Assembly: GCA_007376135.1 (NCBI GenBank)
Contig: VMFR01000002.1
Span: 221,870-285,869, forward strand
Direction of reading: 5' to 3'
DNA from: Parcubacteria group bacterium Gr01-1014_31
GTDB lineage: Bacteria > Patescibacteriota > Patescibacteriia > Buchananbacterales > GWA2-38-13
DNA: 64,000 nucleotides
The notes below the pieces were generated by a model. It ran no database searches, was not told the origin of the DNA, and saw nothing but the letters and a program-made list of their open reading frames with translations. The translations under genes and the position numbers were made by a program. Shown in pieces: positions 367 to 58,180 of this stretch. Position 1 is the stretch's first letter. The number at the start of each line of letters is the position of its first letter.

Positions 367-389
367 CCATTCCTCTGCACTCCCCGCAG

Positions 390-415
390 CGTGGCCGCAA
401 GGCCACGTTTTTTTA
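390..415 (+). terminator. rho-independent terminator (CGTGGCC-gcaa-GGCCACG + T8)
   Basis: perfect 7-bp stem, 4-nt loop, TTTTTTTT tail immediately after stop of 10..366. Confidence 0.7.
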
Positions 416-640
416 TTTCCACTCCTCCGCAGCAAGAGAGTTAACGACCGCAGCGAGAAAGGCGTGGAAATAACCCCGCATCAAGGTTGCCGTGTTCAGC
501 GGTGGAGCCATTTTTTTACATCGCGCGGAACAAAAAAACAACCCAGTGCGCGGGGCGGATAGCCCCACTCCGTTGTGGGCGCAGCACTGGGCCGTAACCT
601 GCCTGCAACCTTAGTGCTGGGGTTAATTTTATCGGGATTA
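408..640. repeat. intergenic repeat element copy A (about 230 nt; homologous to 13851-14068 and partial copy 12566-12652)
   Basis: shared 5' block TTTTTTTATTTCC..CGCAGCAAGrGAGTT..CGACCGC..GAAATAACCCCGCA and 3' block TGGGCGCAGC..GTGCTGGGGTT; compensatory stem CCAC/GTGG here vs CCCGC/GCGGG in copy B. Confidence 0.6.
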
Positions 641-649
641 CCCCACTAC

Positions 650-1399
650 TCACGCCACGACGCCGAACATCAGGTACAGGTCGTAGGCGGTGTGGGACAG
701 CGCGACCACGCCGTACCCGCGCGCCACGTACAGCCCCGACAGCAGCAAACTGGACGTGAAGATGGAGATGAGGCCGCCGATGCCAACGGAACCCAGGTGT
801 AACAGCATGAACAGCACCGACGACACCAGCACCGCGCGGGTTGTGGCCGCCGGGTCGTCCCCCAGCGCGCTGCCGGGCTTGGCCCACAGGCGATACAGCA
901 TCGCCAGCAGCAACACCCGGAACAGCAGTTCTTCAAAAATGCCCGCGCCGACGGCGGCAACGATCTTTGCCCAGGCGGAGTCCAGGCCTTGGATGGCGAG
1001 CTGCTGGACCACTCCAGGGTTGGGCGTGAACGTGAAGAAGCGGGGCAAGCTGCGCGACAGCATCACATGCACGAGAATCGCGAGCACGATACCCAACACC
1101 GCCGCTTCCAGGAACATTCCCAGAACATACCGCGGCGTGATGCGTACCCGTTGCCGTTTGAGGTAGATGAGAAAACTGACGGCCAGTCCGCCCACCACGC
1201 CACTCAGCAGCCACGTGCCGTACGATAGCCCGAAGAAGCCGGCGATGGAGGCCAAGGCGATCCGCAACAGCGCGTCGGCGCCGTTCAGGGCGTTCCCCAG
1301 CGCGCCTTGCCAGATGCCGTACTCGTAGAGCGCCAAGAGCGGGAGCGTTGCAACCACACCGTAGCCAAAGCGTTTGGAATCCTGCGCGTAGCTGCTCAT
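650..1399 (-). CDS. CPBP family intramembrane glutamic endopeptidase (CAAX protease / Abi family)
   Basis: multi-TM protein with EELLFRxxL (EExxxR) and later FxxxH/H motifs typical of CPBP; ORF track 650..1504, start trimmed to internal Met (MSSYAQD). Confidence 0.75.
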   Translation of the reverse strand: MSSYAQDSKRFGYGVVATLPLLALYEYGIWQGALGNALNGADALLRIALASIAGFFGLSYGTWLLSGVVGGLAVSFLIYLKRQRVRITPRYVLGMFLEAAVLGIVLAILVHVMLSRSLPRFFTFTPNPGVVQQLAIQGLDSAWAKIVAAVGAGIFEELLFRVLLLAMLYRLWAKPGSALGDDPAATTRAVLVSSVLFMLLHLGSVGIGGLISIFTSSLLLSGLYVARGYGVVALSHTAYDLYLMFGVVA

Positions 1400-1875
1400 C
1401 GTGGTGCGGGGTAGACCACCAGCATCCGCCGTACCCGCAATGCCGTTCGCGACGGAACATCGGTACCGCGGAAGATGAACCAGATGCGGCGGAAGGTGGT
1501 CCATGGTATCCGCCGGACAAGGCCGCCATCAGGGTCATGGAGGGTCAGGGTTCCCTTCGCGACATTCGCAACCACGGCAAAGTGGCTTTCATCACCGGAA
1601 AACCAGTCGACGATGACCGGTATGCGGCGTATCACTACCCAGCGCCGCAGGTCGGCCAGTGTCGCGTGGTCTTTGATGTTCCCCGTTAGGCCGAGACCGC
1701 GTGCCGCGCCTAATAATCGTTCGGCCGTCACGCCGCGAGCGCGCGTGCACCGTGACTGTCGCGCCAATTCCGTTTCCGTTTTTTTGATGTCAAAATACGC
1801 CAGCACCATCCGAAGCGCGGTGGGGCCGCAGTAGCCGGGGGTTTGGCGGTAGACAGGCAGGCGGCGCATCGTCAT
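1396..1875 (-). CDS. peptidase C39-like domain protein (papain-like cysteine peptidase)
   Basis: motif YRQTPGYCGPTALRMVLAYFDI (Q...CG.A.L.M) typical of C39-like peptidases; start ATG overlaps stop of upstream M23 gene in ATGA arrangement; ORF track 1396..2010 trimmed. Confidence 0.65.
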   Translation of the reverse strand: MTMRRLPVYRQTPGYCGPTALRMVLAYFDIKKTETELARQSRCTRARGVTAERLLGAARGLGLTGNIKDHATLADLRRWVVIRRIPVIVDWFSGDESHFAVVANVAKGTLTLHDPDGGLVRRIPWTTFRRIWFIFRGTDVPSRTALRVRRMLVVYPAPR

Positions 1876-7190: not shown

Positions 7191-7267
7191 AACCATTCTC
7201 TAATTCCCCGTCATTCGACGGGCAGGCGCGCTCGCCCCGCCATCGGCGGGGAATTAGAGAATGGTTA
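7191..7267. repeat. perfect 20-bp inverted repeat (AACCATTCTCTAATTCCCCG ... CGGGGAATTAGAGAATGGTT) with 37-nt loop
   Basis: seen directly; followed by classical terminator 7277-7307 (ACCGGC-tctgattg-GCCGGT + T7) and a third hairpin GGGAGGATGG/CCATCCTCCC at about 7315-7344. Confidence 0.7.
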
Positions 7268-7276
7268 CGGTCAATA

Positions 7277-7307
7277 AAACCGGCTCTGATTGGCCGGTGT
7301 TTTTTTA
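7277..7307 (+). terminator. rho-independent terminator downstream of MFS gene
   Basis: AAAACCGGCtctgattgGCCGGTGTTTTTTT. Confidence 0.7.
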
Positions 7308-7713
7308 AAAAAAGGGGGAGGATGGGGGTGAGGACCATCCTCCCGAAACGAGAAAAGGAGTGAACCGAAAGGACGGAGCGCGTCAGGGGACGGTTTCAGC
7401 AACCGTAATGGTTTCCTCGATGACGAGGATACCTTCGACGGACGTGCCGTTGGTGGGCGGCGGGCCAGGGCCGGCCGCAGCATTTGCATTGGGTGATACA
7501 TCCACGATGTATCCACAGCGTTCTCATATATAGGCAAACCCCCAGTCATGGGTGAACATCATCCACCCTCGGCATTTGATACACCACATCGGGCATCACC
7601 TCCTCGGGTGTGATTGTCAATGAAGCGAAAAATAGACGCCAATCGACTGTTTCCATTGTATAACCAACACCGCCGGTCGGGAACGCCGGCGGTGTCAAGA
7701 GGTTGGTCTGTCG

Positions 7714-12565: not shown

Positions 12566-12652
12566 TTTTTTATTTCCCGCCGCCCCGTCATTCGCCGCCG
12601 CTGAACAATTTTCAACCGTGCCGTTGATTGACCCTCCCAGGCGGCTGGGGTA
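12566..12652. repeat. partial copy C of the 408-640 / 13851-14068 repeat element, embedded in hisG terminator region
   Basis: TTCTTTTTTATTTCCCGCC... and ...GGCTGGGGTAGC ends shared with copies A/B. Confidence 0.45.
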
Positions 12653-12720: not shown

Positions 12721-13776
12721 ATGTCTTCAGCTGATTCTCGGCCGTTGGAAAGTTCCTCCGCCACCGGCAGTGCTCCCGGCGCGCCAACTTTGGCTGCGGC
12801 AGCCAAGCAAAGGGTCAGGGATCTGGTCGGGGTAACGAAGCAGTTCGCTCGCGAGCATCGCGGGCGGAGCTGGTTTCACCTGTGGTCGACGCTCGGCGTG
12901 ATGAGCTGCGCCTTCTTGGCAACCGCGCTGCCGTTCCCGTGGCTGGTGCGCGCCGGGTTCAGCGTCCTTGCTGCCCTGCTCCTGGTGCGGATGTTCGTCA
13001 TCTACCATGACCATAGCCACCGTACCATCCTGCGCGGTTCCCGACTGGTCAAGGTCATCATGTACGGGTTCGGGGTTCTCACCCTCAACCCGCCCAGCGC
13101 CTGGAAGTCCTCGCACGACTACCACCACAAGCACAACGCCAAAAATTTTGGCGTTAACATCGGATCATTTCCTCTCCTGACGACGCACGGCTATGCGCGG
13201 GCGACTAAGTGGGAGCGCTTCGCCTACGCCCTGGCCAGGCACCCGCTGACCATCGCCTGCGCCTACCTGACGGTCTTTCTCTATTCAATGTCGCTGAAGC
13301 CTCTGATCGTGGAACGAGCGAGCCGCCGTGACTGTGGCATCGCGGTCGCCTTGCATCTAGGCATCATCACGTTGCTTGCCGTGCTGGCGCCGTACGTCCT
13401 GCTCTTCACGTTCATGGTCCCCATGTGGATCGCTTCAGCTCTGGGAGCGTACCTGTTCTACTCGCAACACAATTTTCCCGGCGTGCAGCTGCGAGATCGC
13501 CCGGCGTGGGATTTCGTGTTCGCGGCGCTGTATTCCTCGAGCTACACGGCCATGGGGCCGGTCATGCAGTGGTTCACGGGCAACATCGGGTACCACCACG
13601 TGCACCACCTGAATGCGCACATCCCGTTCTACCGCCTACCCGAGGCAATGCGGGCAATTCGCGAGCTGCAAACGCCCTCTACCATTCGGCTCAACGTGAG
13701 CGACGTCTGCCGGTGTTTCCGGCTCAAGCTTTGGGACCCAGAGAAAGACATGATGGTATCGTTCGACGGCACCTAA
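12721..13776 (+). CDS. membrane fatty acid desaturase
   Basis: three His boxes HDHSH, HDYHHKH, HHVHH; TM segments; RBS GAGG; ORF track start 12628 trimmed. Confidence 0.85.
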   Translation: MSSADSRPLESSSATGSAPGAPTLAAAAKQRVRDLVGVTKQFAREHRGRSWFHLWSTLGVMSCAFLATALPFPWLVRAGFSVLAALLLVRMFVIYHDHSHRTILRGSRLVKVIMYGFGVLTLNPPSAWKSSHDYHHKHNAKNFGVNIGSFPLLTTHGYARATKWERFAYALARHPLTIACAYLTVFLYSMSLKPLIVERASRRDCGIAVALHLGIITLLAVLAPYVLLFTFMVPMWIASALGAYLFYSQHNFPGVQLRDRPAWDFVFAALYSSSYTAMGPVMQWFTGNIGYHHVHHLNAHIPFYRLPEAMRAIRELQTPSTIRLNVSDVCRCFRLKLWDPEKDMMVSFDGT

Positions 13777-13850
13777 CCAAAAAGGCATACCCATAGGTAT
13801 GCCCCGACCAACTCCAGTCCACCGCCCCCCTGCCAGACGGCAGTGGGGCA

Positions 13851-14068
13851 TTTTTTTATTTTCCCGCCATCGCAGCAAGGGAGTTTGCGACCGCCGGCGA
13901 GATATGCGGGAAAATAACCCCGCACCAATTTTGCCGTACAATCCACCTCGTGTTTTGAACTATGGTAGCATTGTCCCCCCAGTCGCGAAGCGCGCGTGCG
14001 AATAGCACTCTCCATTATGGGCGCAGCGCTTCGCCGGGACGTGAGTTCCAAAATTGGGTGCTGGGGTT
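13851..14068. repeat. intergenic repeat element copy B
   Basis: see 408..640; preceded by hairpin plus T-run terminator (CTGCC-agac-GGCAG..T7) of desaturase gene. Confidence 0.6.
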
Positions 14069-14073
14069 GCTAC

Positions 14074-14277
14074 CTACATAATGCGACAATCCGGGCAGAC
14101 GCACGGCGTTCCTTGGGCGACGGACTTTAGTGAGCACTCGGGGCACTGCTCCATCGGCTGGAGTGGCTTTCCCTGCAGTTCGCAATTCTTCGCCGCGCAG
14201 GAAATCGCGTCTTGTTCGTGCTGTTCCAGCGTCGCAATGCCGTGGCAGGAGCCCTGGCAGACAAAGACTTTGCCCAT
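14074..14277 (-). CDS. small Cys-rich protein (10 Cys/67 aa), putative metal-binding
   Basis: MGKVFVCQGSCHG...CAAKNCELQG...CPECS...CVCPDC; no recognised family; upstream palindrome cluster. Confidence 0.5.
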   Translation of the reverse strand: MGKVFVCQGSCHGIATLEQHEQDAISCAAKNCELQGKPLQPMEQCPECSLKSVAQGTPCVCPDCRIM

Positions 14278-25561: not shown

Positions 25562-25668
25562 ATTCTGACAAATTTTTTTAGCCCCACCGGGAATCGAACC
25601 CGGGTTCCCACATTGAAAGCGTGGTGTCCTAGCCACTAGACGATGGGGCCAAAAAAATTTGTCAGAAT
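25562..25668. repeat. perfect 18-bp inverted repeat flanking the tRNA (ATTCTGACAAATTTTTTT ... AAAAAAATTTGTCAGAAT)
   Basis: seen directly; tRNA lies exactly in the loop. Confidence 0.8.
25579..25650 (-). tRNA. tRNA-Glu (anticodon UUC)
   Basis: cloverleaf reconstructed by hand: acceptor GGCCCCA/TGGGGCT, T-arm CCGGGTTCGATTCCCGG, anticodon loop CTTTCAA; discriminator A, CCA not encoded. Confidence 0.85.
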
Positions 25669-32953: not shown

Positions 32954-34687
32954 TTGGGAAAACATGAATACGAACCTGCAGTCGACGTGAAGCGTTTGCT
33001 CAGCGGCGTCGACGACCGCAGACGGGAAAAGTTGTGCAATCGGCTCTTCCGGTATGTTCAGGACAGTCGGAGCACGGCTGACCTCGAGGGTTGCGCGGTA
33101 GGCGTCGTTGAACCCTTTGAGCGGGCGTACTGGAACGATTTTTCACGTTCGGTCTTGGAAAACACTTCCCACATCATTGCACAAAATGGGGGGAAAGTAA
33201 TTGAACTTTCTCCTCCGCCATTGTCGCGGCCAGAAGCAGTTGAGACTGAGCGACGGTTGCGGGAGCGAATTTTCGGAATGGCGAAGCCGATTCTCCACCG
33301 AATTTATGATGACCTGTATGCGCGTAAGCGTTTAGAGGTTTTCCTCCGTTCCACCTACCTCGACATGGAGTCGCCCAGTTTCGAAGCCAAAGCATTGCTC
33401 GGAAACTCCGAGCGAATGCTGACCTATCTCAGGGGAGGGTTTCCAGCGGAAGAAATTCGGAAAGCCGCCCGGCATACGTTTATCCTGGAGTTCTACCGCT
33501 ACACCGGGCTCACGCTGGAGCGATCGTTGGGGCTTGCTCTCTTTTTGCTCGGACAATTCGAGATGCTTTCTCGTCAGCTCGTCGGCGTGAATTCTCCCCC
33601 GGATGCCCACTCCCGTGCTTCCATTCCCTGGCGGATTCTTCTCGGGAGTCTGGGGAGTCCGGCAGATCAGCGCGCTCCCCAGCGAGAGTGGTTCTCTCGG
33701 CTTCTCCATTCGGTGGAAGGGAATCCTGTGGTTGAGGAAGTTATCGACTCGATCTACAACCTCGCAACGTGTTCTCCTGACGGAGAAACGGTGGTGACCC
33801 ACAGTCAACCAGAGATGACACAACAACACTCGGCCGAGCAACTTGAGAAGCTGGTTGACGCGGAGTACCACGACAGCGAAGTTCTGCAGTGCAACACCCC
33901 AATTTTCCTCACCTCCGAAGAAGAGGCGATTTTTGCCCGTCTACGGCAATCCGGCCGGGCAGAATTCGAGCGGAATTTCGAGCAGGGTCGTGCCGCCCTG
34001 AGTTGGTTCTCCGCGCACGATGAGTTTCGGGGGGAACTTGAGTGGAAGCGGCGGGAGATCGTCGAGCGGCAGCATGGAAGCCGCCCCGGCATCCGGTTTC
34101 TCCGGGATAACGGTGTTGACCATTTCGAGGTCGATGTGCAGCCGTTGTGGCACATCGGGGTGCGATCCGTCGCCTTTCATCCGGAGGGGCGCGTGTTTCA
34201 CGATCCAGCGTTGCGGATCGCAATACGCAAAGAAACCCCTCACCTCATCGTCTTCCCGGCTTGCTTGGAGAATCTCCGTTTGGAGTTGGTCGATGTTCAT
34301 ATGCTGTATAACCTACAGTACGATGATTTGGACCAGCTGCGGCGTTTCCTGGAGTTTGTGATCATCAACATGATGCACCGCATCATGGTCCAGAGAGTGG
34401 AACTCCGATCCCGAGTCGTCAACGGTGTAGTGGTGCCACGCCCCACGGAGGTACGGAGGTTCGAAGTTGCGAGCCATACCCGAGGCCTACCGTCCGGTTC
34501 TCAGGCGAGTGAAGAAGCCAAGGCGTTGGCGTTCACGGAGAAGGGTATCATCCTCAATTCGGGGGAGACGTACGTTTCCGCTTACCCCAAGGGGGGTAAA
34601 GATGGGTCCGAGTTGGTCTACGACTGGCCGATCGAGCCGTGGGCGGTCTACACTGAGGATGATCTCTACGAAGATGGAGGTGGCTAA
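32954..34687 (+). CDS. hypothetical protein (577 aa), no recognisable domain; first gene of candidate system
   Basis: TTG start 8 nt after SD AAGGAG; mixed composition throughout; acidic C-terminus. Confidence 0.6.
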   Translation: MGKHEYEPAVDVKRLLSGVDDRRREKLCNRLFRYVQDSRSTADLEGCAVGVVEPFERAYWNDFSRSVLENTSHIIAQNGGKVIELSPPPLSRPEAVETERRLRERIFGMAKPILHRIYDDLYARKRLEVFLRSTYLDMESPSFEAKALLGNSERMLTYLRGGFPAEEIRKAARHTFILEFYRYTGLTLERSLGLALFLLGQFEMLSRQLVGVNSPPDAHSRASIPWRILLGSLGSPADQRAPQREWFSRLLHSVEGNPVVEEVIDSIYNLATCSPDGETVVTHSQPEMTQQHSAEQLEKLVDAEYHDSEVLQCNTPIFLTSEEEAIFARLRQSGRAEFERNFEQGRAALSWFSAHDEFRGELEWKRREIVERQHGSRPGIRFLRDNGVDHFEVDVQPLWHIGVRSVAFHPEGRVFHDPALRIAIRKETPHLIVFPACLENLRLELVDVHMLYNLQYDDLDQLRRFLEFVIINMMHRIMVQRVELRSRVVNGVVVPRPTEVRRFEVASHTRGLPSGSQASEEAKALAFTEKGIILNSGETYVSAYPKGGKDGSELVYDWPIEPWAVYTEDDLYEDGGG

Positions 34688-35067
34688 TGGAATTTGACCA
34701 CTTCGATCTTCGCGAGCTCTACCGGGAGTGGCGTGAACAACGGCCAACATTGACGAGCCGGCTGCAAAGGAGTTTTCCTGCATGGGTTTTCGAGGTGCGT
34801 TCTCAGTACCGCGAGCTCGCCCGCGCGCATCCGTCGCTTTTCCACGCCGCCTGCCATCAAGCCGAGGAAGCGGAAAGAGGCGTCGCTACACCCCCTGACC
34901 ACGGTATCCGTCAGGCTGTCCTGCAACGCCACGCTGTTGAGCTTGCACAGTGTTGGCTGCTGGCGCGCGATCAATACCCCACGTTTGGTGCATTTCTCGA
35001 GCGGGTGCTCCAGGAATGCCAAACCGAGCGCGCGCTGCAGCGATGGCTCAAGCACCTTCCGAGGTAA
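34687..35067 (+). CDS. hypothetical protein (126 aa), translationally coupled (TAATG) to upstream gene
   Basis: ORF track; start overlaps stop. Confidence 0.55.
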   Translation: MEFDHFDLRELYREWREQRPTLTSRLQRSFPAWVFEVRSQYRELARAHPSLFHAACHQAEEAERGVATPPDHGIRQAVLQRHAVELAQCWLLARDQYPTFGAFLERVLQECQTERALQRWLKHLPR

Positions 35068-35098
35068 GTCGGTCCAGAGATTGGGCCGACTTTTTTTA
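35067..35098 (+). terminator. stem-loop AGTCGG..CCGACT + T7
   Basis: seen directly after stop of 126-aa gene. Confidence 0.6.
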
Positions 35099-35185
35099 TT
35101 GACATACAGCGATTTTTATGGTAGAGATGGTTTCTTGTTTCTTTGATAACTGAATAATTGGCCCTTTAGTTTATGGAGGAAAGTC

Positions 35186-38100
35186 GTGAGAAAGATGAGC
35201 AAGAAAGAGAAAATCGCCCTCATTATGAGCATCGCCGATGTGGCGTTGCGAAACCAGTCGCTGCGGTGGATGCTCAAAGCCGGTGAAATCACCGAGGATG
35301 ATCTCGCGGTAGTTGATGCCCAAGAAGCGGCACGCCAGTACCCCGAGCTCCGGGAACGTTTTAAGACCGATCCCGGCCTGCGGGTACTGCTGGACGTTTT
35401 CCGCGACTACCCGATCTACTTGGCCCGTGCGTTGGTTCAGGCGGCGCCGGACGTGTTCTACTCGTACGGTTTTGCGTACCGAAACTCAGTCAAGTTGCGC
35501 GCCGACCTCGGCACAATCGGAGTTGACCCGATCCGTGGCTCCGGCGGTTCGGGAGCTGCGGTGTACCTTGAGCGTCTTCCCAAGGAAGTTCGACAAGACT
35601 TGGTCGCACTGCTCCAGGAATTCTACTTTCATGAGTGGCTCAAGGATTTCTCCGACAGCCCCGAAGATGCGCTGGCCCTGCTCGATTTGGCTCGCGGGGA
35701 AGCCACTAATGATTTGGCGCGCCAGGCGTTGTCCGGACTTCATGATGAGTGTCAGCAGGTGTTCCAGGGAGTTTTCCCCGACTTTGTCGAGGAATTCCAT
35801 GCATCCCGGTTTCCATCTTTCCACGTTCGTTGGTGGATCCACCATATCAGCGAGGTTCCCCGCGTACTCAATATGGGAGATACCGGGACCCAAAAGACCG
35901 CCTTTGCCGCGGTCGGGCTTCGTCACTATGGCTGCCAACGGGCGCTGATCGTCTGTCCGACCCGCGCGAGTCTCCAATGGCAACGCGAGATCCAGGGCTA
36001 TCTGCGAACGCCCGCCGACCGCGTGCTGTTGGTTGATAGTCCGCGGATGATCGCGGAAGCGGCCGTCGCCACGCCGTGGTACACCATCATCGGGTACAGT
36101 ACGCTGATCGCGCGCGGGGTGGTAGACCAACTGAAGGCCATCCCCTTTGATGGGTTGGTTTTGGATGAGTGCCACTACTGCAATCACGATTCGCATCGGG
36201 CGATAGCTGCCAGTCAGCTCGTCAACGAGCTTCCGCTCCGGCGATTTTTAGCGCTGTCCGCTACTCCCTGGGAGAACCATCCGCGAGAGATGGCAGCGCT
36301 CGCTACCATGCTGCGGCCGACCACGTTCGCTTCGCCAGAGGTCTTTCGTCAGTCGCGGCCGGAGCACCCTCGTTTTCTTCGTGAACTTTTCCGCGCGCAA
36401 GTGCTTCAAGTGGAGCTGCGCGAGCTGACTCGTCTCCCATCGATCACCCCGAGCCCTTGGGAGGATCTGTTCGGCGCCGAACTGATTGAACCGACGCCGG
36501 AGCAGCGCGCTGTGTACGATTTTGTACGCGAGCAAGAGGACGACGAGCTCCCCGCGACCGAAAAGATGAAACGGCTGCTGTGGGCGGCGATCCATCCGCA
36601 CAAGCTGAAGCCCCTTTACGCGTGGCCAGCTGCGCTGGTATCGCACTTCGATCATCCGGAGCTTTCGGCAAAGCTCGCCTGGTTGAAAAACCGAATCACC
36701 CTTGAGCTTGCTCGAGGCGCCAAGGTGGTCGTCGGCACTGGCATTTACGTCGCCGGCATTACCTGTCCCAACGACAACGGTGACGAGCAGTGGGTCGGCA
36801 ATCAATTGCGTCAGTGGTTTGGCGAGCATCGCGTGCTCATCCTCGACGGGAGTGTGCTGAAGAGTGCCGGCCATAGCGGTTTAGTCAAGCGCGAACGACT
36901 CATCGAACAATGGCGCAACGATCCGGAAACCAGGATTCTCCTCGTTTCGATACCGGCCTGTCCCGATGCGCTGAACCTCAGCGTTCCCAAGTTGTCTGGG
37001 ATTACCCGTCTTTTCGTCACCACCCTGTCTTATCCCTGGAAGCCGTGGAAGCAATTCCAAGGTCGTTTCTGGAGGCCAGGGCTCGGCGTGGAGATGGAGT
37101 ACCGGGTGCCGGTGCTTCGCGGGACAATCGACCACAGTCTACTACGGATGCTCCGCAGGAAGTGGGAGTTGCAGCAGATGTTCCGTGCCTTGGTACCGTT
37201 GACTGAAGAGGAATTCGCTCGACTTGATCAGGGCGAGTATCTCCGCTGGTTGGCGGATGAGCTGCGTTCCGACTACCAACGCGTTATCTTCATCGGTAAC
37301 AATTTCCGTGGTCAGGGAGAAGCTCATGCGATTGCCATGTTCGAGGCTGAGTATGCGTCGACTACAACCGCAGAGGCATATGCAAGCGCATTTCTTGCCT
37401 GCCATGACTGCGCCACTTCTGGGCATATCGCTCGGTTCATGCAACCAGCGATCGAGGCGATGCAACAGCAAGGAGGGCTTGTGGATTCCACCGGTGTCAC
37501 CATACTCGATGCTGGGTGTGGCCCACTCACCCTCGAGCGGCGTTTGGCGCAGCCAGTCTATGGTGTGGACATGAATCGCCATATGATTGAACTGGCCAAG
37601 CCAAAGTCGCCGTGTGGCGGCTGCAATGTCCACGTCGGTTTCCTCAGCCAGCTGCCAGCAGAATGGACCGGGCGATTCGAGTTGACGGTTGCCTCGCTCG
37701 TGCTCGACTGGACTTCGATCGAGAGCGAAGTCGGGAGAGAACCGGATCGTTTGACGGTGCTGCGGGAGTTAGTTCGCGTTACACATCCAGTCGCTGGCCA
37801 CGTCTGGATAACCGTGACGCATCGGTCGCTCACCTCGGAGCTGTTTCAAGGCTGGGTTGCCGCCCTGGAACAGCAGGGTTTCGAGATCGTACGTGATTTT
37901 ACGGCGTTGTTCCGATCAAAGGACCACGAACCTGGTCAGGTACCATTCGAATTCTGGTCGATCTGTTTTTCACCCAAGGGTAAACAGCTTACCTTGGTCG
38001 ATCCTCAAGCACTTCGTTTCACTTTCGAACAATCGCGCACGAAGAAGAAGCGATCTGCCGATGGAGACGACGATCAGCTGCGAAGCCCAAAAGTGCAACG

Positions 38101-38332
38101 CATGGTCAAGTACCAGAAATTCGAGGCCGTACATCGGTCAGGCGAAATCGTCCAGCAGTCGGATGCGATCGAGCGGGCCGTCTCGGGTGAGGTGGTTCGT
38201 TTGATGCGCAACCCTGATTTGCGGGGGTGGAAACCTCACCGCAAGCCAATCCTTGCCTGGGAACATCTGTGGCGCTCTTATGTGAAGCGTCCGGAGGTTG
38301 CCGAAGAACTCAGGCGGCGCGGGTTCCTGTGA
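35186..38332 (+). CDS. fusion protein: N-terminal unknown domain (about 230 aa) + SNF2-family helicase (SNF2_N + Helicase_C) + class I SAM methyltransferase (Methyltransf_11-like) + basic C-terminal tail
   Basis: motif I GDTGTQKT, Ia ALIVCPTRASLQW, II LVLDECHY (DExH), III LALSATPWEN, V RILLVSIPACPDALNL, VI QFQGRFWRPGLG; MTase motif I ILDAGCGPLT, post-I VYGVDMN, Methyltransf_11 tail; GTG start with SD GGAGG. Confidence 0.8.
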   Translation: MRKMSKKEKIALIMSIADVALRNQSLRWMLKAGEITEDDLAVVDAQEAARQYPELRERFKTDPGLRVLLDVFRDYPIYLARALVQAAPDVFYSYGFAYRNSVKLRADLGTIGVDPIRGSGGSGAAVYLERLPKEVRQDLVALLQEFYFHEWLKDFSDSPEDALALLDLARGEATNDLARQALSGLHDECQQVFQGVFPDFVEEFHASRFPSFHVRWWIHHISEVPRVLNMGDTGTQKTAFAAVGLRHYGCQRALIVCPTRASLQWQREIQGYLRTPADRVLLVDSPRMIAEAAVATPWYTIIGYSTLIARGVVDQLKAIPFDGLVLDECHYCNHDSHRAIAASQLVNELPLRRFLALSATPWENHPREMAALATMLRPTTFASPEVFRQSRPEHPRFLRELFRAQVLQVELRELTRLPSITPSPWEDLFGAELIEPTPEQRAVYDFVREQEDDELPATEKMKRLLWAAIHPHKLKPLYAWPAALVSHFDHPELSAKLAWLKNRITLELARGAKVVVGTGIYVAGITCPNDNGDEQWVGNQLRQWFGEHRVLILDGSVLKSAGHSGLVKRERLIEQWRNDPETRILLVSIPACPDALNLSVPKLSGITRLFVTTLSYPWKPWKQFQGRFWRPGLGVEMEYRVPVLRGTIDHSLLRMLRRKWELQQMFRALVPLTEEEFARLDQGEYLRWLADELRSDYQRVIFIGNNFRGQGEAHAIAMFEAEYASTTTAEAYASAFLACHDCATSGHIARFMQPAIEAMQQQGGLVDSTGVTILDAGCGPLTLERRLAQPVYGVDMNRHMIELAKPKSPCGGCNVHVGFLSQLPAEWTGRFELTVASLVLDWTSIESEVGREPDRLTVLRELVRVTHPVAGHVWITVTHRSLTSELFQGWVAALEQQGFEIVRDFTALFRSKDHEPGQVPFEFWSICFSPKGKQLTLVDPQALRFTFEQSRTKKKRSADGDDDQLRSPKVQRMVKYQKFEAVHRSGEIVQQSDAIERAVSGEVVRLMRNPDLRGWKPHRKPILAWEHLWRSYVKRPEVAEELRRRGFL

Positions 38333-40538: not shown

Positions 40539-40549
40539 AGATGAGACAA

Positions 40550-40612
40550 TTGACTTTTGACCATTGACCGTTGACTTTTTCCGACGGTCAAATGTCAATG
40601 GTCAACGGTTAA
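40550..40612. promoter_or_regulatory. palindromic heptad array: 4x TTGAC(nn) ... centre ... 4x (nn)GTCAA/GTTAA, immediately upstream of nfo
   Basis: TTGACttTTGACcaTTGACcgTTGACtttttccgacgGTCAAatGTCAAtgGTCAAcgGTTAA. Confidence 0.6.
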
Positions 40613-40726
40613 TTGTTTACGACGGTTTTCTTGAGGTACTCCGTCACCTTACGGGAGGTGAGGCTTTGGTTACAACGATTGTAGCATGGGTGGTGGGGCT
40701 TGCCACGGTGGGGATTTCCTCGAGCT

Positions 40727-41458
40727 TTAGCGTTGGGGCAGCGTGTTCCACAAGGCGTCAAACATGGCCGTTTGCACTTGGGTCAGTTCGTCGCTCTCCA
40801 CGACCAGAGCAACTAAATCTTTGCGGAATGAAAACATCGCGATTTTATTGCCCCAGATGAAAATGTTGCCATGGTAGCGGTAACTTTCCGGGATGATTTT
40901 CACCACCCGCAGGTGTTGGGGCCCAAGCTGCTGGCGCTCCCGAGCTTTTGGCGATTCCCGTAAGATGACTTGTACGGAAATTTTTTTTTGCACACGTTTT
41001 TTTACGAATTCGGGAAAAATTTTATCCAGGGTCGTAAAAAGATCCTCCGCGGCGCCAAACGAGCGCACCTCGCGCGCCTCTGCCAGTATTTCCTCCAAAA
41101 TCAGCTTCATCCCCAGTGTGCCTTGGTAGAACCGCACGGTCGGGCGGTGCTTGGCGGCGCCGTAGAGCGCGCGCAGTTCCGGAAAAGCCTGCTCCAATAG
41201 CTCCACCTTATCTTTGGCCAGGACAATGACTTTCTGGGGATCCTCGGCGCCGTAGTATTGGATATTTTTCTTTTTGTACGTGGAAGCAAAACCCTGCTGG
41301 CACAGACGTTCCAATAGTTCATAGCATGTTGAGCGGGGTAATCCGGATTTTCGGCTGATTTTTTGTACCGACGCCGAACCCAATTCCAAACAAGCCAAGT
41401 ACACCTTGGCTTGTTTTTCCGTTAGCCCGAAGTCTTTGAGCGTTTGTTCGAGGTTCAT
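40727..41458 (-). CDS. TrmB family transcriptional regulator
   Basis: N-terminal HTH LGLTEKQAKVYLACLELGSASVQKISRKSGLPRSTCYELLERL + TrmB C-terminal domain. Confidence 0.8.
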   Translation of the reverse strand: MNLEQTLKDFGLTEKQAKVYLACLELGSASVQKISRKSGLPRSTCYELLERLCQQGFASTYKKKNIQYYGAEDPQKVIVLAKDKVELLEQAFPELRALYGAAKHRPTVRFYQGTLGMKLILEEILAEAREVRSFGAAEDLFTTLDKIFPEFVKKRVQKKISVQVILRESPKARERQQLGPQHLRVVKIIPESYRYHGNIFIWGNKIAMFSFRKDLVALVVESDELTQVQTAMFDALWNTLPQR

Positions 41459-41775: not shown

Positions 41776-42168
41776 ATGGCAGAGCCTAAGGCAGCCGAGT
41801 TTACTGTTGGCGGTCTCGTTTTCGCGCTAATCCCCTTCCTTAAGGAAGGGGAAATCCATATCGACTATGACGAGCTGCTAAAGCGCGCCAAAAAGCTTAG
41901 AGCCAGCGGCTCAAAAGGCTGCCGGTTCATTCGTGATCATCTGGAAGAAATTCCTGCTGAATTTCGTTGGGAGTTTGATCTGATTTTTCCAAGCTACCGC
42001 CGCCCCGGGTTCCCGTCGCGGTTGCAAGCGTACTTCGCCGAATTCTTTTGCGGGAACAGCGGTACTTGGGTCCAAGCTTGGCGTCCGCTCAGATCCGACT
42101 ATTTCGACTATGGCGGGCACGATCGACTGGTGCGCCGGGTCAGAATGAAAAAAGGGGGAAACAAATAG
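41776..42168 (+). CDS. small protein, paralog family member 1 (130 aa)
   Basis: shares F-T-[IV]-[GA]-G..[VY]-[GA]-L..[PF] ... EEIP.EFR.EF.L[IV]F ... W.Q.W ... [YH]DRLVR.V with 43788.., 44164.., 44733..; SD AAGGAGG. Confidence 0.6.
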   Translation: MAEPKAAEFTVGGLVFALIPFLKEGEIHIDYDELLKRAKKLRASGSKGCRFIRDHLEEIPAEFRWEFDLIFPSYRRPGFPSRLQAYFAEFFCGNSGTWVQAWRPLRSDYFDYGGHDRLVRRVRMKKGGNK

Positions 42169-42175
42169 TTAATTT

Positions 42176-42204
42176 GGGGGCGACGGCAATATTTGATCGC
42201 CCCC
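42176..42204 (+). repeat. conserved leader hairpin GGGGGCGA..TCGCCCCC (copies at 43629-43673 and 44543-44572) followed by TCCTACCAATGGCGACAAG
   Basis: three copies aligned by eye. Confidence 0.6.
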
Positions 42205-42285
42205 TCCTACCAATGGCGACAAGTAGAGCTTATCGTCAGCGGCGGGAGAAAATGTAAGTAGCCCTTTGACCAAAAAGGAGAATAC

Positions 42286-43110
42286 ATGGGAGAGACGGAA
42301 CAAGAGACACCGCCTCCGGTGCTGTCCACGCCGGTGGTGTACGGCCCTGTGGCGTCGCGGCGGTTGGGACGGTCGCTGGGCATCAATCTATTTACCCCGG
42401 CAAGTAAAGTCTGTACGTTCGATTGCGCGTACTGCCAGTGCGGTGCCGCCCAGCCGACGGCCACGGGCATCCTGTCGCTTGCCCGTATCAAGCGGGGACT
42501 ATCCGCCAGTTTCCGGAAATTGGTTCGGTTTGGAACGCCGATCCAGCACCTCACGTTTGCCGGTAACGGCGAGCCGACCATCCACCCTGATTTTCCCGAA
42601 ATCGTCGCCTACGTCCTGCGGTTACGCGACCGACTCCTGCCCGGAATACCGACCGCAATTTTCACGAATGGATCAGCACTCGGTACGTCGGCAATTCGGT
42701 CAGCGATCGCAAAATTGGATCGGCGGTTCCTGAAGTTGGACGCCGGTGATCCCCAAACGGCGCGGCGCGTCAATCGGAGCAAGAACTTTGCCGCGATCGT
42801 GCATTCCCTGGCGGCTGCGGCGAAGGAGATGCCGGTGGAAATTTCCACCGCCGTCATCACCGCACCTGCGAGGTTCGCCAACCTCAATTCTCTCCGAAAC
42901 CTTGGTTACGTTAGGGTTGTTCAGCGGATCAACCCGCAGCGGCTGTACCTCTACAGCATTGATCGGCCGCCCGCGGTGTCAGTCATTGAGCAGGCGTCGC
43001 CAGCAGTGTTGCTGCAGCTTGCCACCTACCTTCGGTCGCGACTCGATGTGCCAGTCCTGGTGCTCCGGTCACGGCGGACCAGGCCGTGGGCGCAGTGGAT
43101 TTGGGAGTAA
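42286..43110 (+). CDS. radical SAM protein (COG0731-like)
   Basis: CTFDCAYCQCG (Cx3Cx2C) preceded by VYGPVASRRLGRSLGINL. Confidence 0.8.
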   Translation: MGETEQETPPPVLSTPVVYGPVASRRLGRSLGINLFTPASKVCTFDCAYCQCGAAQPTATGILSLARIKRGLSASFRKLVRFGTPIQHLTFAGNGEPTIHPDFPEIVAYVLRLRDRLLPGIPTAIFTNGSALGTSAIRSAIAKLDRRFLKLDAGDPQTARRVNRSKNFAAIVHSLAAAAKEMPVEISTAVITAPARFANLNSLRNLGYVRVVQRINPQRLYLYSIDRPPAVSVIEQASPAVLLQLATYLRSRLDVPVLVLRSRRTRPWAQWIWE

Positions 43111-43127
43111 GGGAAAGGAGAAACCGC

Positions 43128-43550
43128 ATGGTGTGTGTTTCCCACGTCGCCATTTTCGTGAACAATCTCGATTTGATGGAGCGTTTCTACCAGGCGGTCT
43201 TCGGGATGTGGACGGTGTGGAAGGCGCCAAACGAGAAAGCCTACCTCACGACGGGCAACCGCGACATCTTCGCCCTACTGCACAAACCCGGCTACCGGCC
43301 GCGCCGTTACGATCTGGCGGGCATCCTCCAGGATCCGCGAGTGACGCCGAATTTCCCCCACTTTGGGGCGGTGGTTGAAACCCTTGACCATTTCACCGAA
43401 CTGATGGAACGGCTCGAGGCCACGGGAATCACCATCTACGGCCCCAAGGTCAGCCGCGATACCACCCGTTCATTCTACTTCCACGATCCGGAAGGAAACG
43501 CGGTCCAGGTTGTCTGTCCGACGCATGAGTACTTCCAACGCTCGAGGTAA
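43128..43550 (+). CDS. VOC (glyoxalase/bleomycin-resistance/dioxygenase) family protein
   Basis: HVAIFVNNLD...FYFHDPEGNAVQV; SD AAAGGAG; start trimmed. Confidence 0.75.
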   Translation: MVCVSHVAIFVNNLDLMERFYQAVFGMWTVWKAPNEKAYLTTGNRDIFALLHKPGYRPRRYDLAGILQDPRVTPNFPHFGAVVETLDHFTELMERLEATGITIYGPKVSRDTTRSFYFHDPEGNAVQVVCPTHEYFQRSR

Positions 43551-43787
43551 TTCACGGCGCACGTTCATCGTGGCCATCGTGGACAAGATCTTTCACGAGT
43601 AAACCCGGAATACCGGGTATGTACCATCGGGGGACGGCCGACGACACGAACGCGTGGCGATCACCGTCCCCCTCCTACCAATGGCGACAAGCTGTATTTG
43701 TCGTCAGCGGCGGGAGAAATGGATTCTCCCGTGCCCAAAGCCCGGCGTGAAAGGGTACGCACGTTGACAAGAAAGAAAGGAAAAAGC

Positions 43788-44138
43788 ATGGGTGATTCAA
43801 AAATTGTCACATTCACCCTCGGTAACCGCGTCTATGGGCTGGTACCCATTTTCCAGGAGGCCGAGACCTACGTCAGCGATAACACGATGGTGGAGCGCGC
43901 CCAAGAGCTTGGCGCTAACCTGGACGAAGAAGACGGTCAATTCTTCATGGAACACCGGGCAGAAATTCCCGCGGAGGTTCAGAGGTCTTTACTGGTTTTC
44001 ACGGGTTGGCGCCATCCGTCTAACCCGCAGAGCTTCGCCTACATGGGCTGGGTCGGCGATAAGTGGTACCAGGCATGGTATTTGCCAGAGCTCGTCGAGT
44101 GGTGCAAGTACGATCGGCTGGTGCACTGCATCTCGTAA
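43788..44138 (+). CDS. small protein, paralog family member 2 (116 aa); possible N-terminal extension from ATG 43719
   Basis: about 50% identical to member 3 over full length. Confidence 0.65.
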   Translation: MGDSKIVTFTLGNRVYGLVPIFQEAETYVSDNTMVERAQELGANLDEEDGQFFMEHRAEIPAEVQRSLLVFTGWRHPSNPQSFAYMGWVGDKWYQAWYLPELVEWCKYDRLVHCIS

Positions 44139-44163
44139 TCCTTTCTGAATAAGGAGAAGTGTC

Positions 44164-44520
44164 ATGGAGCAACCCGTGTGTCAGCAGTTCACCATTGCCG
44201 GCCACACCTACGGGCTCATGTCCTTCCATGAGGAAGGCGAAGGTTTGGTCAATGGGGACACGATGGTGGAGCGTGCCTTGAAGCGTGACGCCAACCTGGG
44301 CGAAGAGGACGGCGCCTTAATTTTGGAGCACCAGGACGAAATTCCCCAGAAATTCCGGGGGGAATTCTACCTGGTCTTCGCGGCCTGGCATCATCCGTCC
44401 CGCCCGCAGCGCGTCGCGTGTCTCCGCTGGAACGGCTTCCGCTGGTGCCAGGACTGGTACTGGCTCGGCAGCAGCTGGGGCGGGTATGATCGGCTGGTGC
44501 GTAAAGTCAGTATGAAATAA
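44164..44520 (+). CDS. small protein, paralog family member 3 (118 aa)
   Basis: SD AAGGAGA; Trp-rich C-terminal half conserved with member 2. Confidence 0.65.
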   Translation: MEQPVCQQFTIAGHTYGLMSFHEEGEGLVNGDTMVERALKRDANLGEEDGALILEHQDEIPQKFRGEFYLVFAAWHHPSRPQRVACLRWNGFRWCQDWYWLGSSWGGYDRLVRKVSMK

Positions 44521-44732
44521 AGGGGAGATGAATAGTTCATTTGGGGGCGACAGCAAATACTTGATCGCCCCCTCCTACCATTGCGTTGCAATACCCAATT
44601 TTCCCTCTCCCCTTGATGGGAGAGGGTAGGGTGAGGGTGGAAATGCAGCGCAGCGGCGGGAGGAAATGGATTTTCCCGCGCCAAATGCCCGGCGCAAGTG
44701 AGCAAGTTCTTTGACTAAGGAAGGAGAAAGTT

Positions 44733-55798: not shown

Positions 55799-58171
55799 AT
55801 GGGTGTTGTTGCCCGAGCGCGTTCCCTGGGGTGGCTGGCACTCCCCTTGGTGACGGTCATCGCCGTTTTTTCCCCGGTGCTGTTTTTCGGCCGGGTGTTC
55901 GCGGACGGCGACGCGGTGCTGCAATTTTATCCTATTCTGACCTGGCTGCAGCGCGCGCTGCGCGCGGGTCAGTCCGTAGATTTCAACCCGCACGTGCTGG
56001 CCGGGTTTCCGACCGCCGCCAGCACCTTGGGCGGCCTGCGGTCGCCTTTGCAGCAGTGGCTGTTTGGGACGTTCGACGTCATCACCGTCTACGCCTGGCT
56101 GACGGGAGCGAGTTTTTTGCTGACCGCGCTGTGCACCTACGGTTTGGCGCGGGCGCTTGGGTTCGGCCGTCCGGCGGCGGCACTGCCGGCGCTGGTCGTT
56201 CCACTGTCTCCGGCGCTGCTCGGGTTTGCCGGCAACATCACCGTCAGCGTCACGTACTGGACATTCCCCGCGCTCTTGCTGTGCGTGTGGCACCTACATC
56301 GCTCGTCGGTGCGGCAGGCGCGCTGGTGGGTATCGGTTGCCGGCGGCGCGCTGATCTTCGCGCACAGTCTGCAGGTCGGTCACTTGCAGTGGCCGTTAGT
56401 GTACGGCACTGCGGCGTTCGCGTTCGCCGTAGCACTTTTCTGGCGGGAGCGGCGTTGGCAGACGCTCGCGGGAACGACGGCGCTGTTTGCGGCCGCGGCC
56501 GTCCTGGCGCTGCCGCTGCTGTTGCCGACCTTGGCGTTCGCGCGGCTTTCGGCGCGGCTGCATTCGGGCGCGAGCGGCGAGGGCGGGCTGCGGTTACTGG
56601 ATCTTTCCAGCTGGCTGTTGCCGCGCGTCGTGCTGCCGCGGCTGACCTCCACTCCCGGCTTCTTGTACGCCGGTGCGCTGCCGTTCCTATTGGCGGTGGT
56701 CGGTCTGCGGTTGCGCGACTGGCGGGTACGCGTCGCCTGGTGGGGGTTGTTGGGGAGTCTGCTCCTGGCCTGGTCGGGTTCGCCCCTCGCGTGGTTCGTG
56801 AACCGGCTGCCCGTATTCTCCTTATTCCGCGCGTCGGCGCGTTGGATGTACGTTGGCAACGTCGCGACGGCGTTCTTGGCGGCCGCGGGGTTGGATTTTA
56901 TCATCGCCCATGCGAATGGGGCCTGGCGACCGTTGGCGCAGCGCGTGAGTTCGTGGACCATGCGCGCCGTGGCGGTGCTGGCAGGGCTGTCCGCCGTCTG
57001 GCTGGCAGCCGCGGCGCCGTTGCGTACGGCGGCGTTCGCCTTGTTCGACCGTTACTGGTACGCGCGCACCACGGGGCTGCCGGTCTCTCACTATCACCAG
57101 GTGCTTGATGGGATGCTTTCGCAGTTTGCCAGCGGCGTCACCATTTGGTCATTTCCCACTGCGTTGGGAATCGTTTCTCTGGCGGCAGCCGCGTGGCTTT
57201 TGCGCCGTGTGGCCGACGGCAGGATCGGTGGCGCCGTTTTTGCCGCCCTGGCGCTGGCGCTGACCGCTGGAAATCTCGCGCCGCTGGCGTTCTCGGCGCT
57301 GCCGACCGCCGACGCGCGCGTGCTGCGTGTTGCACCGGGCTGGTCAGTGCCGCCCGGCGAACGCTTTTTTTCTTTTCTCCCCGGTTCCTCAGTGTATCAG
57401 CAGCTTGATGTCCCTTTTGGTTACGCGCCGGACGATAACATCGCGCTCCATCGCGCATTGGGGTCGGCCAACCTCCAGCTGCTGGATGGCAGCGACGGCC
57501 TGGACTACTACGACAACATCATGGACCGCCGCAGCGCCCGCGTGTTGTCCTATTTGGGTTCGAACCGCGGCACCACGGGTGAGCAATTGGCCACGCTGGA
57601 TGTCAGCTTTGAAGAAAAGCGTGCGCTCTTCCTGGAGCGGTTGCCGATGCTTGCCGCGTTGAACGTCGGCACCGTCGTGAGCCTGTATCCGCTGTCGCAC
57701 CCCGACCTGGCCCTCGTCGCAACTTTGGACGTAACCACTCGCCAGCTCCCGCTCTACGTCTACCGGTTAACGACCGTGCAGCCGCGTTTCTATTTTGCTC
57801 CCGCGGTGCAGGCGACGCCCGCGGTTGATGCTACGGATGCCTGGCAGGCATTTTTGGACCACCAGCCGCGGCTGTCCAACGCCGTCCTCTTGGAGTGCGC
57901 GGACTGCCCGATGTCCACGGCGACCGGTACGGTGCAGGTACTGGAAGCGTCAACCGCGCGGTACCGGTTCGCGGTGCGCGCCGCTGCGGAGGCGTGGTTC
58001 ATCTTCGGTTATGCCAACCTGCCGGGCTGGACGGCGGCGCTGGACGGCGTTCCGGCGGCGCACTATCCTGCCAACTACCTGCTGCAAGCGGTTCGGGTGC
58101 CGCAGGGCGACCATCAGCTTGAATTCACATATTCCCTGGATCGCGCCTGGCGCGATATCCTCACCCAGTAG
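55799..58171 (+). CDS. large polytopic membrane protein (YfhO/GT-C-like), putative glycosyltransferase
   Basis: about 14 TMs + periplasmic C-terminal domain. Confidence 0.5.
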   Translation: MGVVARARSLGWLALPLVTVIAVFSPVLFFGRVFADGDAVLQFYPILTWLQRALRAGQSVDFNPHVLAGFPTAASTLGGLRSPLQQWLFGTFDVITVYAWLTGASFLLTALCTYGLARALGFGRPAAALPALVVPLSPALLGFAGNITVSVTYWTFPALLLCVWHLHRSSVRQARWWVSVAGGALIFAHSLQVGHLQWPLVYGTAAFAFAVALFWRERRWQTLAGTTALFAAAAVLALPLLLPTLAFARLSARLHSGASGEGGLRLLDLSSWLLPRVVLPRLTSTPGFLYAGALPFLLAVVGLRLRDWRVRVAWWGLLGSLLLAWSGSPLAWFVNRLPVFSLFRASARWMYVGNVATAFLAAAGLDFIIAHANGAWRPLAQRVSSWTMRAVAVLAGLSAVWLAAAAPLRTAAFALFDRYWYARTTGLPVSHYHQVLDGMLSQFASGVTIWSFPTALGIVSLAAAAWLLRRVADGRIGGAVFAALALALTAGNLAPLAFSALPTADARVLRVAPGWSVPPGERFFSFLPGSSVYQQLDVPFGYAPDDNIALHRALGSANLQLLDGSDGLDYYDNIMDRRSARVLSYLGSNRGTTGEQLATLDVSFEEKRALFLERLPMLAALNVGTVVSLYPLSHPDLALVATLDVTTRQLPLYVYRLTTVQPRFYFAPAVQATPAVDATDAWQAFLDHQPRLSNAVLLECADCPMSTATGTVQVLEASTARYRFAVRAAAEAWFIFGYANLPGWTAALDGVPAAHYPANYLLQAVRVPQGDHQLEFTYSLDRAWRDILTQ

Positions 58172-58180
58172 TAGCCGCGT

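Follow-up and report, generated by a model that had tools for sequence, protein, structure and literature searches.

A structured RNA family with mobile-element behaviour found behind transcription terminators in Parcubacteria-type bacteria

Introduction

Class C (IIC) group II introns insert in the sense orientation just downstream of the stem-loops of intrinsic terminators, using the hairpin together with a 3-4-nt IBS1/EBS1 pairing with the U-rich tail. Among short elements, the TA-duplicating MITEs derived from IS630/Tc1-mariner include Correia, RUP and Nezha, and the omega-RNA families held in Rfam are HEARO and IS605-orfB. Genomes of the candidate phyla radiation are tiny and contain very little non-coding DNA, and to our knowledge few catalogued RNA families are specific to these bacteria.

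The element described here occurs twice in a 64-kb stretch of DNA, which was analyzed as a whole and is referred to as the window (60.6% GC, with housekeeping genes of the ordinary kind), and the proteins encoded there are deposited as Parcubacteria group bacterium Gr01-1014_31, with a contig size of 300,461 bp. Like the IIC introns, the element lies directly after a hairpin and T-run, and pairing occurs between an internal UAA and the UUA that forms the last 3 nt of the target. Its orientation appears to be that of the upstream gene at 11 of 12 loci (the 16S rRNA gene at L042), a count that includes L028/L044, where the contig ends before the upstream gene could be confirmed. Unlike the IIC introns, which comprise a ribozyme of at least 400 nt and an ORF, the element is only 215-260 nt long, and unlike group II introns in general it has no GUGYG...AY ends, domain-5-like hairpin or match to RF00029 and its 3' end is variable. 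A group II intron was therefore rejected as its identity, the copies in the window being 216-223 nt long with ends that read TTT(T)CC... and are variable. A group II reverse transcriptase that works in trans is improbable, given that a survey covering 95 complete genomes of Patescibacteria reports an absence of group II introns (PMC13011429).

Two copies of the element in the window

Two repeats that a sequence-only reading of the window had placed at 408-640 and 13851-14068 are genuine copies of one element, with ends that are better set at 416-638 (copy A) and 13859-14074 (copy B). The coordinates of the features are summarized in Table 1. As had been read, both copies contain CGCAGCAAGRGAGTT (428-442 and 13871-13885), GAAATAACCCCGCA or AAAATAACCCCGCA (467-480 and 13911-13924) and TGGGCGCAGC with GTGCTGGGGTT, and each shared block was found at no place in the 64 kb besides the two copies (chance expectation 0.3-0.4 matches). 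The loop of the 5' hairpin H1 is about 80% identical between copies A and B despite their diverged cores. A covariance model of the core, described below, matched copy A at 141 bits and copy B at 116 bits.

A terminator scan and the comparison with relatives agree that both copies begin straight at the T-run of the upstream terminator. The terminator in front of copy A (hairpin arms 390-396/401-407) is the insertion target and contributes its final TTA to helix H1. The left end of copy A was placed by analogy with copy B and its right end was inferred from a diverged empty site in L053; a TA (639-640) comes next. The boundaries of copy B are fixed by empty sites in two relatives, within a 2-nt TA ambiguity, with H1 at 13856-13917, including the TTA of the target, and the core at 13916-14070.

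Table 1. Positions of the element copies, their parts and related sites in the window
Feature	Position	Strand	Basis or remarks
Terminator of upstream small ORF (copy A target)	388..415	+	hairpin 388-409, T7 408-414, A 415; terminator scan
Copy A	416..638	+	223 nt: H1 (to 473), core 472-626, 14-nt tail 625-638
Core RNA of copy A	472..626	+	inverted repeats, RNAalifold, pair counts, segment lengths
H2 closing helix, copy A	474-490 with 605-622
Hypervariable segment, copy A	491-541
CATTTTTTTACATC in hypervariable segment of copy A	509..522	+	identical to copy B empty site (L002, L048)
H4, copy A	542-551 with 580-591		bulged A at 583
H5, copy A	552-556 with 562-566		loop GGAUA
H6, copy A	569-571 with 577-579
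Linker, copy A	592-604		13 nt
Empty target site T7A7	7300..7313	-	after terminator of small ORF 7271-7549 (-)
hisG terminator tail TTTTTTATTTCCCGCC, not a copy	12567..12582	+	resembles element 5' junction
Second desaturase terminator hairpin and CA-T7-A (copy B target)	13826..13858	+	alignment with L002, L001
Copy B	13859..14074	+	216 nt: H1, core, 6-nt tail GCTACC; then TA (14075-14076)

Upstream of copy A lies a small ORF ending at 366, and downstream the convergent 3' end of an Rce1-like gene (650-1504, minus strand). Copy B has on its upstream side a fatty-acid desaturase gene (12721-13776) with two terminator hairpins behind it, and on its other side a small Cys-rich ORF in convergent orientation. 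This ORF (14131-14277, minus strand; 49 aa from the first ATG) is conserved, is called as 67 aa in L002 and L048 and has no Pfam match.

A third, partial copy that had been proposed at 12566-12652 found no support. The only part that matches is TTTTTTATTTCCCGCC, the remainder scored no better than shuffled sequence, and the covariance model gave no match in this stretch even with its filters off. The stretch consists of the hisG terminator followed by a conserved desaturase promoter (TTGACC-17-TAGCAT), and relatives show neither insertion nor deletion there. The hisG tail is equal to the 5' junction of the element (T-run, A, TTTCCCGCC) with no element after it; the resemblance could be due to chance, to a preferred target context or to a left-end remnant.

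Common fold and covariation

The element consists of the 5' hairpin H1, a core and a short variable tail. In full-length copies the core measures 150-154 nt, with the exceptions of L048 (149 nt) and one copy in L036 that carries an insertion. The predicted core is closed by H2 (17-19 bp) and contains a hypervariable segment, H4 with a bulged A, a three-way junction bearing the GAAUA-loop hairpin H5 and the small C/G hairpin H6, and a linker of 13-14 nt. The segment that separates the 5' strand of H2 from H4 could not be aligned, but its length is 50-52 nt in 10 of 12 full-length copies (48 and 30 nt in the others). We looked by eye for pairing of this segment with the 14-nt linker and saw no consistent pattern. 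A stable hairpin lies upstream of the core in 10 of 12 copies, and in six its 3' strand directly adjoins the core. At the base of H1, the U-rich terminator tail is paired with a run rich in A; the high-GC lineage and L042 have UUAUUU/AAAUAA here, where the UUA comes from the terminator tail.

The covarying helix noted in the sequence-only reading is genuine and is one of several. In copy A it reads TTATTTCCACTCCT/AGGCGTGGAAATAA, as compared with TTATTTTCCCGC/GCGGGAAAATAA in copy B, and it corresponds to H1, formed by TTATTTCCAC.../...GTGGAAATAA in copy A (413-426 with 460-473) and by TTATTTTCCCGC/GCGGGAAAATAA in copy B (13856-13867 with 13906-13917). Compensatory long-range helices are CAAGGTTGC/GCAACCTT in copy A versus CCAATTTTG/CAAAATTGG in copy B, CCCAGTGC/GCACTGGG versus GCGAAGCGC/GCGCTTCGC, and GGGGC/GCCCC versus GTGC/GCAC. 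Both window copies fold better than shuffled sequence (z = -3.0 and -3.7).

With nine sequences in a plain MAFFT alignment, RNAalifold predicted 39 pairs, 14 of them with compensatory changes. When the set was extended to 13 sequences, 92.9% of the core cells were paired and double (compensatory) changes were observed in 16 of the 39 pairs, with a covariation score of 0.296 as compared with 0.130 ± 0.012 in shuffles; none of 500 shuffles reached the real alignment on any measure. Control alignments in which the partners were slid by 1-3 columns showed pairing in 37-49% of cells. The 13-sequence alignment was fitted to the covariance model, and the MAFFT alignment of nine sequences gave the same helices. 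Conservation of the core is overstated in these data, because the search pattern from which 11 of the 13 sequences came fixed 21 core bases. About 31 cells hold G·U as against a handful with A·C, and the + strand should therefore be the folded strand. The + strand fold fits an RNA, and the G·U excess taken alone would also be compatible with a single-stranded DNA form. The alignments support a conserved structured RNA with a common fold on one strand, and this fold is under selection.

Several known RNA classes were considered and rejected as identities. A riboswitch or cis-regulatory leader was rejected because of the setting of the copies: those in the window are flanked by convergent genes, and the downstream genes belong to no recurring class, with leuA, pyrF, RNase III, a Gam-like gene and 16S rRNA among the neighbours of other copies. 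A group I intron was rejected in view of the missing terminal G, P7-like element and Rfam match, the CGC-A-GC of the element having what we take to be a resemblance to the bulged A of group I P4. No Rfam match was obtained to tRNA, tmRNA, SRP RNA, RNase P RNA, 6S RNA or Y RNA, the signature motifs of which are, as far as we can judge, also absent. An integron attC site was rejected since the AAC/GTT triplets lie on the outer and not the inner side of the helix, and since the element is too long.

Insertion behind terminators and variation between strains

The clearest evidence of insertion comes from copy B. In L002, with a desaturase 98% identical to that of the window, the DNA is collinear with the window and 216-218 nt corresponding to copy B are precisely missing. 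The empty site reads ...GGGGCATTTTTTTA/CATCAG..., with a slash at the junction, and the filled site of the window ...GGGGCATTTTTTTA(TTTTCCCGCC...GGGGTTGCTACC)TACATAATG..., with the element in brackets and a 2-nt TA ambiguity; in brief, ...T7A/CATC is the empty and ...T7A(216 nt)TA CAT the filled state. Copy B is present in L001, and its site is also empty in L048 (GCA_030648715.1), where it reads TTTTTTTACATC. The more distant L003 and L004 keep the hairpin and T-run without copy B, and the T7A after the hairpin is also seen in L003. TA is found at both junctions of copy B, as against one TA only where L002 and L048 are empty; a 2-nt match of this kind has a chance of 1 in 16. Copy A and the copy in L048 are compatible with TA duplication, with empty sites that have diverged, so that TA duplication has one clean case (copy B) and two looser ones.

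The reverse situation was observed at 7300-7313, where the window reads CCCCCTTTTTTTAAAAAAACACC (minus orientation) behind a small minus-strand ORF that lies downstream of an ABC-transporter gene. Exactly at this site L048 carries a copy of the element (105 bits), oriented as the terminated gene. For copy A, orthologs about 97% identical were found in L032 and L049-L051 (four near-identical contigs). Copy A is missing in L053 (76% protein identity), where the orthologous terminator is present and the T-run is followed, 36 nt on, by the stop codon of the Rce1-like gene, and it is also missing from L054-L058. The 22-kb locus of a relative with a 90% identical DnaK held no copy. In distant relatives the spot of copy A downstream of the Rce1-like gene holds other genes (L054 10850-11116, L057 9564-11096), namely a small GIY-YIG gene and DUF559/Vsr-like genes, and various mobile genes seem to accumulate between the genes at this position.

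All three high-GC insertions follow a hairpin, T5-7 and A, and start with the bases TTT(T)CC; T7-A-TT was read in four copies from three genomes. Each of the three points in the direction of the terminated gene, whichever DNA strand that gene is on. An antisense copy is located inside the grpE-dnaK spacer in L026/L037. The tails after GGGGTT measure 6, 14 and 42 nt and share no hairpin. The copies with the appearance of recent gain are 15-25% diverged from one another and no near-identical source copy was seen, and for this reason recombination between old alleles, and not new transposition, could have produced the filled and empty states. What the comparisons show is an accessory element that is inserted, sense-oriented, right after a terminator T-run and A and is present in some and absent from other near-identical strains.

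Compared with the TA-MITEs, the element is similarly small, non-coding, multi-copy, intergenic and polymorphic in presence, with TA at both copy B junctions. Unlike TA-MITEs, the inserted unit lacks inverted-repeat ends, and no transposase related to it came to light. The ends of copy A (5' TTTCCACTCC, 3' ...ATCGGGAT) are not complementary, and neither are those of copy B (5' TTTTCCCGCC, 3' ...GTTGCTACC) or of the L048 copy (3' ...CATTTC). The only long inverted repeat, AACCCCGCAyCAAUUUUGC/partner, is, unlike that of MITEs, internal and closes the core 58 nt from the left end, and the internal helices covary strand-specifically, in which the element also differs from MITEs. Terminal inverted repeats or a duplication around the core alone were rejected, the bases outside AACCCC...GGGGUU not being duplicated. 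Since the unit ends are not inverted repeats and the 3' end is unconserved, the element is not a classical MITE. The sequence-only reading had left the choice between an sRNA or riboswitch-like family and a MITE. The structured RNA and the mobile intergenic behaviour stand, the latter on the basis of filled and empty alleles in close strains at two loci, and the riboswitch and the classical MITE do not. What remains is a real RNA family with mobile-element behaviour, and both alternatives were thereby partly right.

The position at gene 3' ends, together with 11 of 12 loci that appear sense, several copies per genome and the pairing of H1 with the terminator U-tail, would also suit a cis-acting 3'-UTR element in the manner of REP/BIME or ERIC, which spreads passively and serves to stabilise or process the mRNA upstream of it or to insulate transcription from convergent genes. 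The likeness to REP/BIME and ERIC extends to a repeated, structured sequence at gene 3' ends, co-oriented with the gene. REP/BIME and ERIC are, however, simple imperfect palindromes confined to a genus or family, whereas the element has a multi-helix fold with a three-way junction in hosts of about 39-61% GC. The junction, the conserved loops, the bulged A and the fixed lengths across these hosts exceed what the blocking of an exonuclease needs, the element is positioned after and not before an efficient-looking terminator, it is missing in neighbouring strains without a change of the gene, and one copy is antisense within an operon. We therefore find a 3'-UTR element hardly probable.

The copies themselves have no coding capacity. 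No transposase, TnpA, TnpB, IscB or IS110 gene was detected in the 64-kb window or beside the 13 copies, in a Pfam check of about 35 ORFs of the window and 10 ORFs adjoining other copies, and an autonomous element with the same ends and a transposase was likewise not found in the window or beside the 13 copies. A scan for promoters upstream of the copies returned nothing.

In our judgement, held with somewhat better than even confidence, the element is a non-autonomous, terminator-targeting mobile element, and the product that selection maintains is a structured RNA. The element has no visible promoter and would be transcribed by read-through from the upstream gene. The TA at the end of the terminator T-run would be the site of integration, and the enzyme responsible would be encoded at some other place. 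The choice of site may be aided by pairing of the target UUA with the UAA in which the A-rich strand of H1 ends on its 3' side (...AAAUAA), and the structured core might serve as scaffold or catalyst of integration. Several points tell against this explanation. No enzyme able to move the element was found in the 64-kb window or beside the copies, the lack of inverted-repeat ends combined with an unconserved 3' end is odd for any transposase-defined element, strong terminators precede an element with no visible promoter so that its transcription is assumed, and the copy in L026/L037 is antisense in the grpE-dnaK spacer.

Family members and hosts

A metagenome scan with the pattern TGGGCGCAGC-N24-36-GTGCTGGGGTT gave 30 loci, at 11 of which the whole element was identified by BLAST. 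With the core covariance model we obtained 13 distinct copies, one of them cut by a contig end, and the copy in L048 was found in addition. Among the 13 are second copies 0.7-1.7 kb away in L036 and L043, and the copy in L026/L037. Further copies and covariation are thus both present, and local duplication of gene ends does not account for the similarity between the repeats. A scan of a genome collection with the H1-loop pattern CGCAGCAAGNGAGTTNNCGACC was of no use, as its 13 matches were all chance and neither window copy was among them. No copy was detected in plasmids or phages (BLAST), in viral contigs (two pattern scans) or in about 33 kb and 22 kb of related genomes.

The GC content of the host contigs is 38-44%, or 59% for L032. 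The DnaK encoded beside the copy in L037 is 82-90% identical to proteins of Paceibacterota, Yanofskybacteria and Patescibacteria, and wherever a host could be placed it was of the Parcubacteria/Paceibacterota type (candidate phyla radiation). The copy in L042 begins 146 nt past a 16S rRNA gene of 1670 nt, which must carry insertions because the corresponding model has 1533 positions. At this locus (L042 2745-4942) the order is 16S rRNA gene, RNA element and an 84-nt tRNA.

Rfam 15 gave no family at the gathering threshold at any copy tested, in the window or at related loci, and permissive searches (E <= 10 for the window copies, <= 5 for four related loci) returned noise only, such as P33, which scored 17.5 bits where 45 are required, and UCA1, with 15-17 bits where 80 are required. 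The literature, searched by sequence strings and by topic, held no description of the RNA. The RNA family is uncatalogued and absent from Rfam.

The main rival of a mobile element is an ordinary chromosomal family of sRNA genes, likened to tRNAs, snoRNA-like guides and regulatory sRNAs. Each genome would hold several members, old paralogs acting in trans, each with its own 51-nt specificity segment, and presence or absence would reflect homologous recombination of the flanking DNA and not transposition. The core of copy B is nearer to copies from 40%-GC hosts (83-86% identity) than to copy A of the same genome (75%), as ancient paralogs would be. The fixed-length hypervariable segment within a conserved scaffold and the purifying selection, which includes the variable segment, suit such a family, as do the missing transposase, the undefined 3' end and the missing near-identical source copy; a hairpin after the core in L042, L043 and L048 could be its own terminator. 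However, no promoter is visible, and the high-GC copies start 0 nt past a strong terminator between convergent genes. Three independent loci share the same kind of site (T-run and A) and the same first bases, TTT(T)CC, a clean 216-nt indel in collinear DNA is unlike the usual replacement by recombination, and the variable segments had no match among possible targets in the sequence compared. We regard an sRNA gene family as possible, though unlikely on balance.

Selection and the variable segment

Between copy A and its ortholog in L032 about 8 of 240 nt differ, a level like that of the coding flanks, and the 51-nt variable segment shows no change. By eye, roughly half of the positions differ in the unconstrained spacer, about 25 nt long, that separates the stop codon from the terminator hairpin. 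Within the variable segment of copy A the 14-nt sequence CATTTTTTTACATC is the best match in about 92 kb, at 28.2 bits; the background in shuffles has a mean of 22.0, an sd of 2.0 and a maximum of 30.2. When the variable segments of other copies were compared with limited stretches of their own host DNA, nothing comparable was found.

This match bears on a further alternative, a guide module of the omega-RNA or bridge-RNA type belonging to an IS200/IS605- or IS110-type system that has lost its protein gene and receives its nuclease or recombinase in trans. The element resembles the IS200/IS605 PATEs and the TnpB/IscB omega-RNAs in having no inverted-repeat ends, in its position 3' of a short motif, in its left-end hairpin (H1) and in the similar size of the RNA. 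A structured RNA of 150-220 nt with a variable segment, inserted beside a short fixed motif, is what such a module would provide, the 2 nt common to both junctions are expected from IS110-type core recombination, and the variable segment of copy A holds an exact 14-nt copy of the empty target site of copy B. Unlike PATEs and omega-RNAs, the element has a right end without a conserved hairpin or a fixed distance to the scaffold, gives no Rfam match to omega-RNA families, has no TnpA or TnpB nearby and follows the orientation of the terminated gene on either strand. No TnpB, IscB, TnpA or IS110 gene was found in the 64 kb or beside any copy, and the distance from scaffold to right end varies from 6 to 42 nt when a TnpB-type 3' guide should be fixed. 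Since this distance varies and no TnpB is nearby, the element is not an omega-RNA of the usual layout. In the test for bridge-RNA loops, made with limited host DNA, the target-like sequence was seen in copy A alone and as a contiguous sense copy, about 3 sd above shuffles. Copies are found on both strands within 14 kb and track the direction of the genes, not one replication strand. A guide module is in our view very doubtful.

A bolder proposal is a new, RNA-centred class of mobile element, in which an RNA of about 220 nt would pair with the terminator U-tail and direct or catalyse its own integration, with a programmable 51-nt segment that sets further targets. The programmable segment is hinted at because copy A carries the exact empty-site sequence of copy B, and we consider this proposal quite improbable.

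A well-folded RNA that occurs in hosts of about 39-61% GC, in several copies and strain-variable at terminators, would be a new Rfam family, and the element offers a handle on the workings of mobile DNA in uncultured bacteria of the candidate phyla radiation. If the RNA aids its own targeting, the element would be a further RNA-guided insertion system beside group II introns, omega-RNAs and bridge RNAs, and would then be far smaller than the known systems and of biotechnological interest. If it is instead a trans-acting RNA family with a programmable segment, it would point to a new RNA-guided process in these bacteria.

Other features of the window

A palindrome of 76 nt, the arms of which measure 38 nt (AACCATTCTCTAATTCCCCG...CGGGGAATTAGAGAATGGTT), occupies 7191-7266 between convergent genes, some 35 nt away from the empty target site at 7300-7313, and is conserved in L048. 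It gave a weak match to the core model (17 bits, on both strands), which may reflect only its long hairpin. An inverted repeat of 28 nt (25562-25668), which is 93% complementary and includes a T7A run, surrounds a tRNA gene (25579-25650, minus strand). A palindrome with 30-nt arms of TTGAC-like repeats at 40546-40616, just upstream of a TrmB-family regulator gene (40727-41458, minus strand), is probably an operator.

At 42112-44715, three families of direct repeats (78 nt with 81%, 52 nt with 88% and 53 nt with 74% identity) lie upstream of small ORFs, which adjoin a radical-SAM gene (42286-43110), a glyoxalase-fold gene and three ORFs without a Pfam match. These repeats could be the repeated leaders of a peptide-modification cluster. 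Within 32954-38332 and 55799-60250, a 577-aa ORF without a Pfam match adjoins a 1048-aa SNF2-helicase/methyltransferase fusion, and the same stretches hold two more large ORFs (790 and 689 aa) without a Pfam match. The Parcubacteria-labelled MAG combines its 60.6% GC with genes for hisG, argB, homoserine dehydrogenase, H+-pyrophosphatase and fatty-acid desaturase, a GC content and gene set that are unusual for genomes of the candidate phyla radiation.
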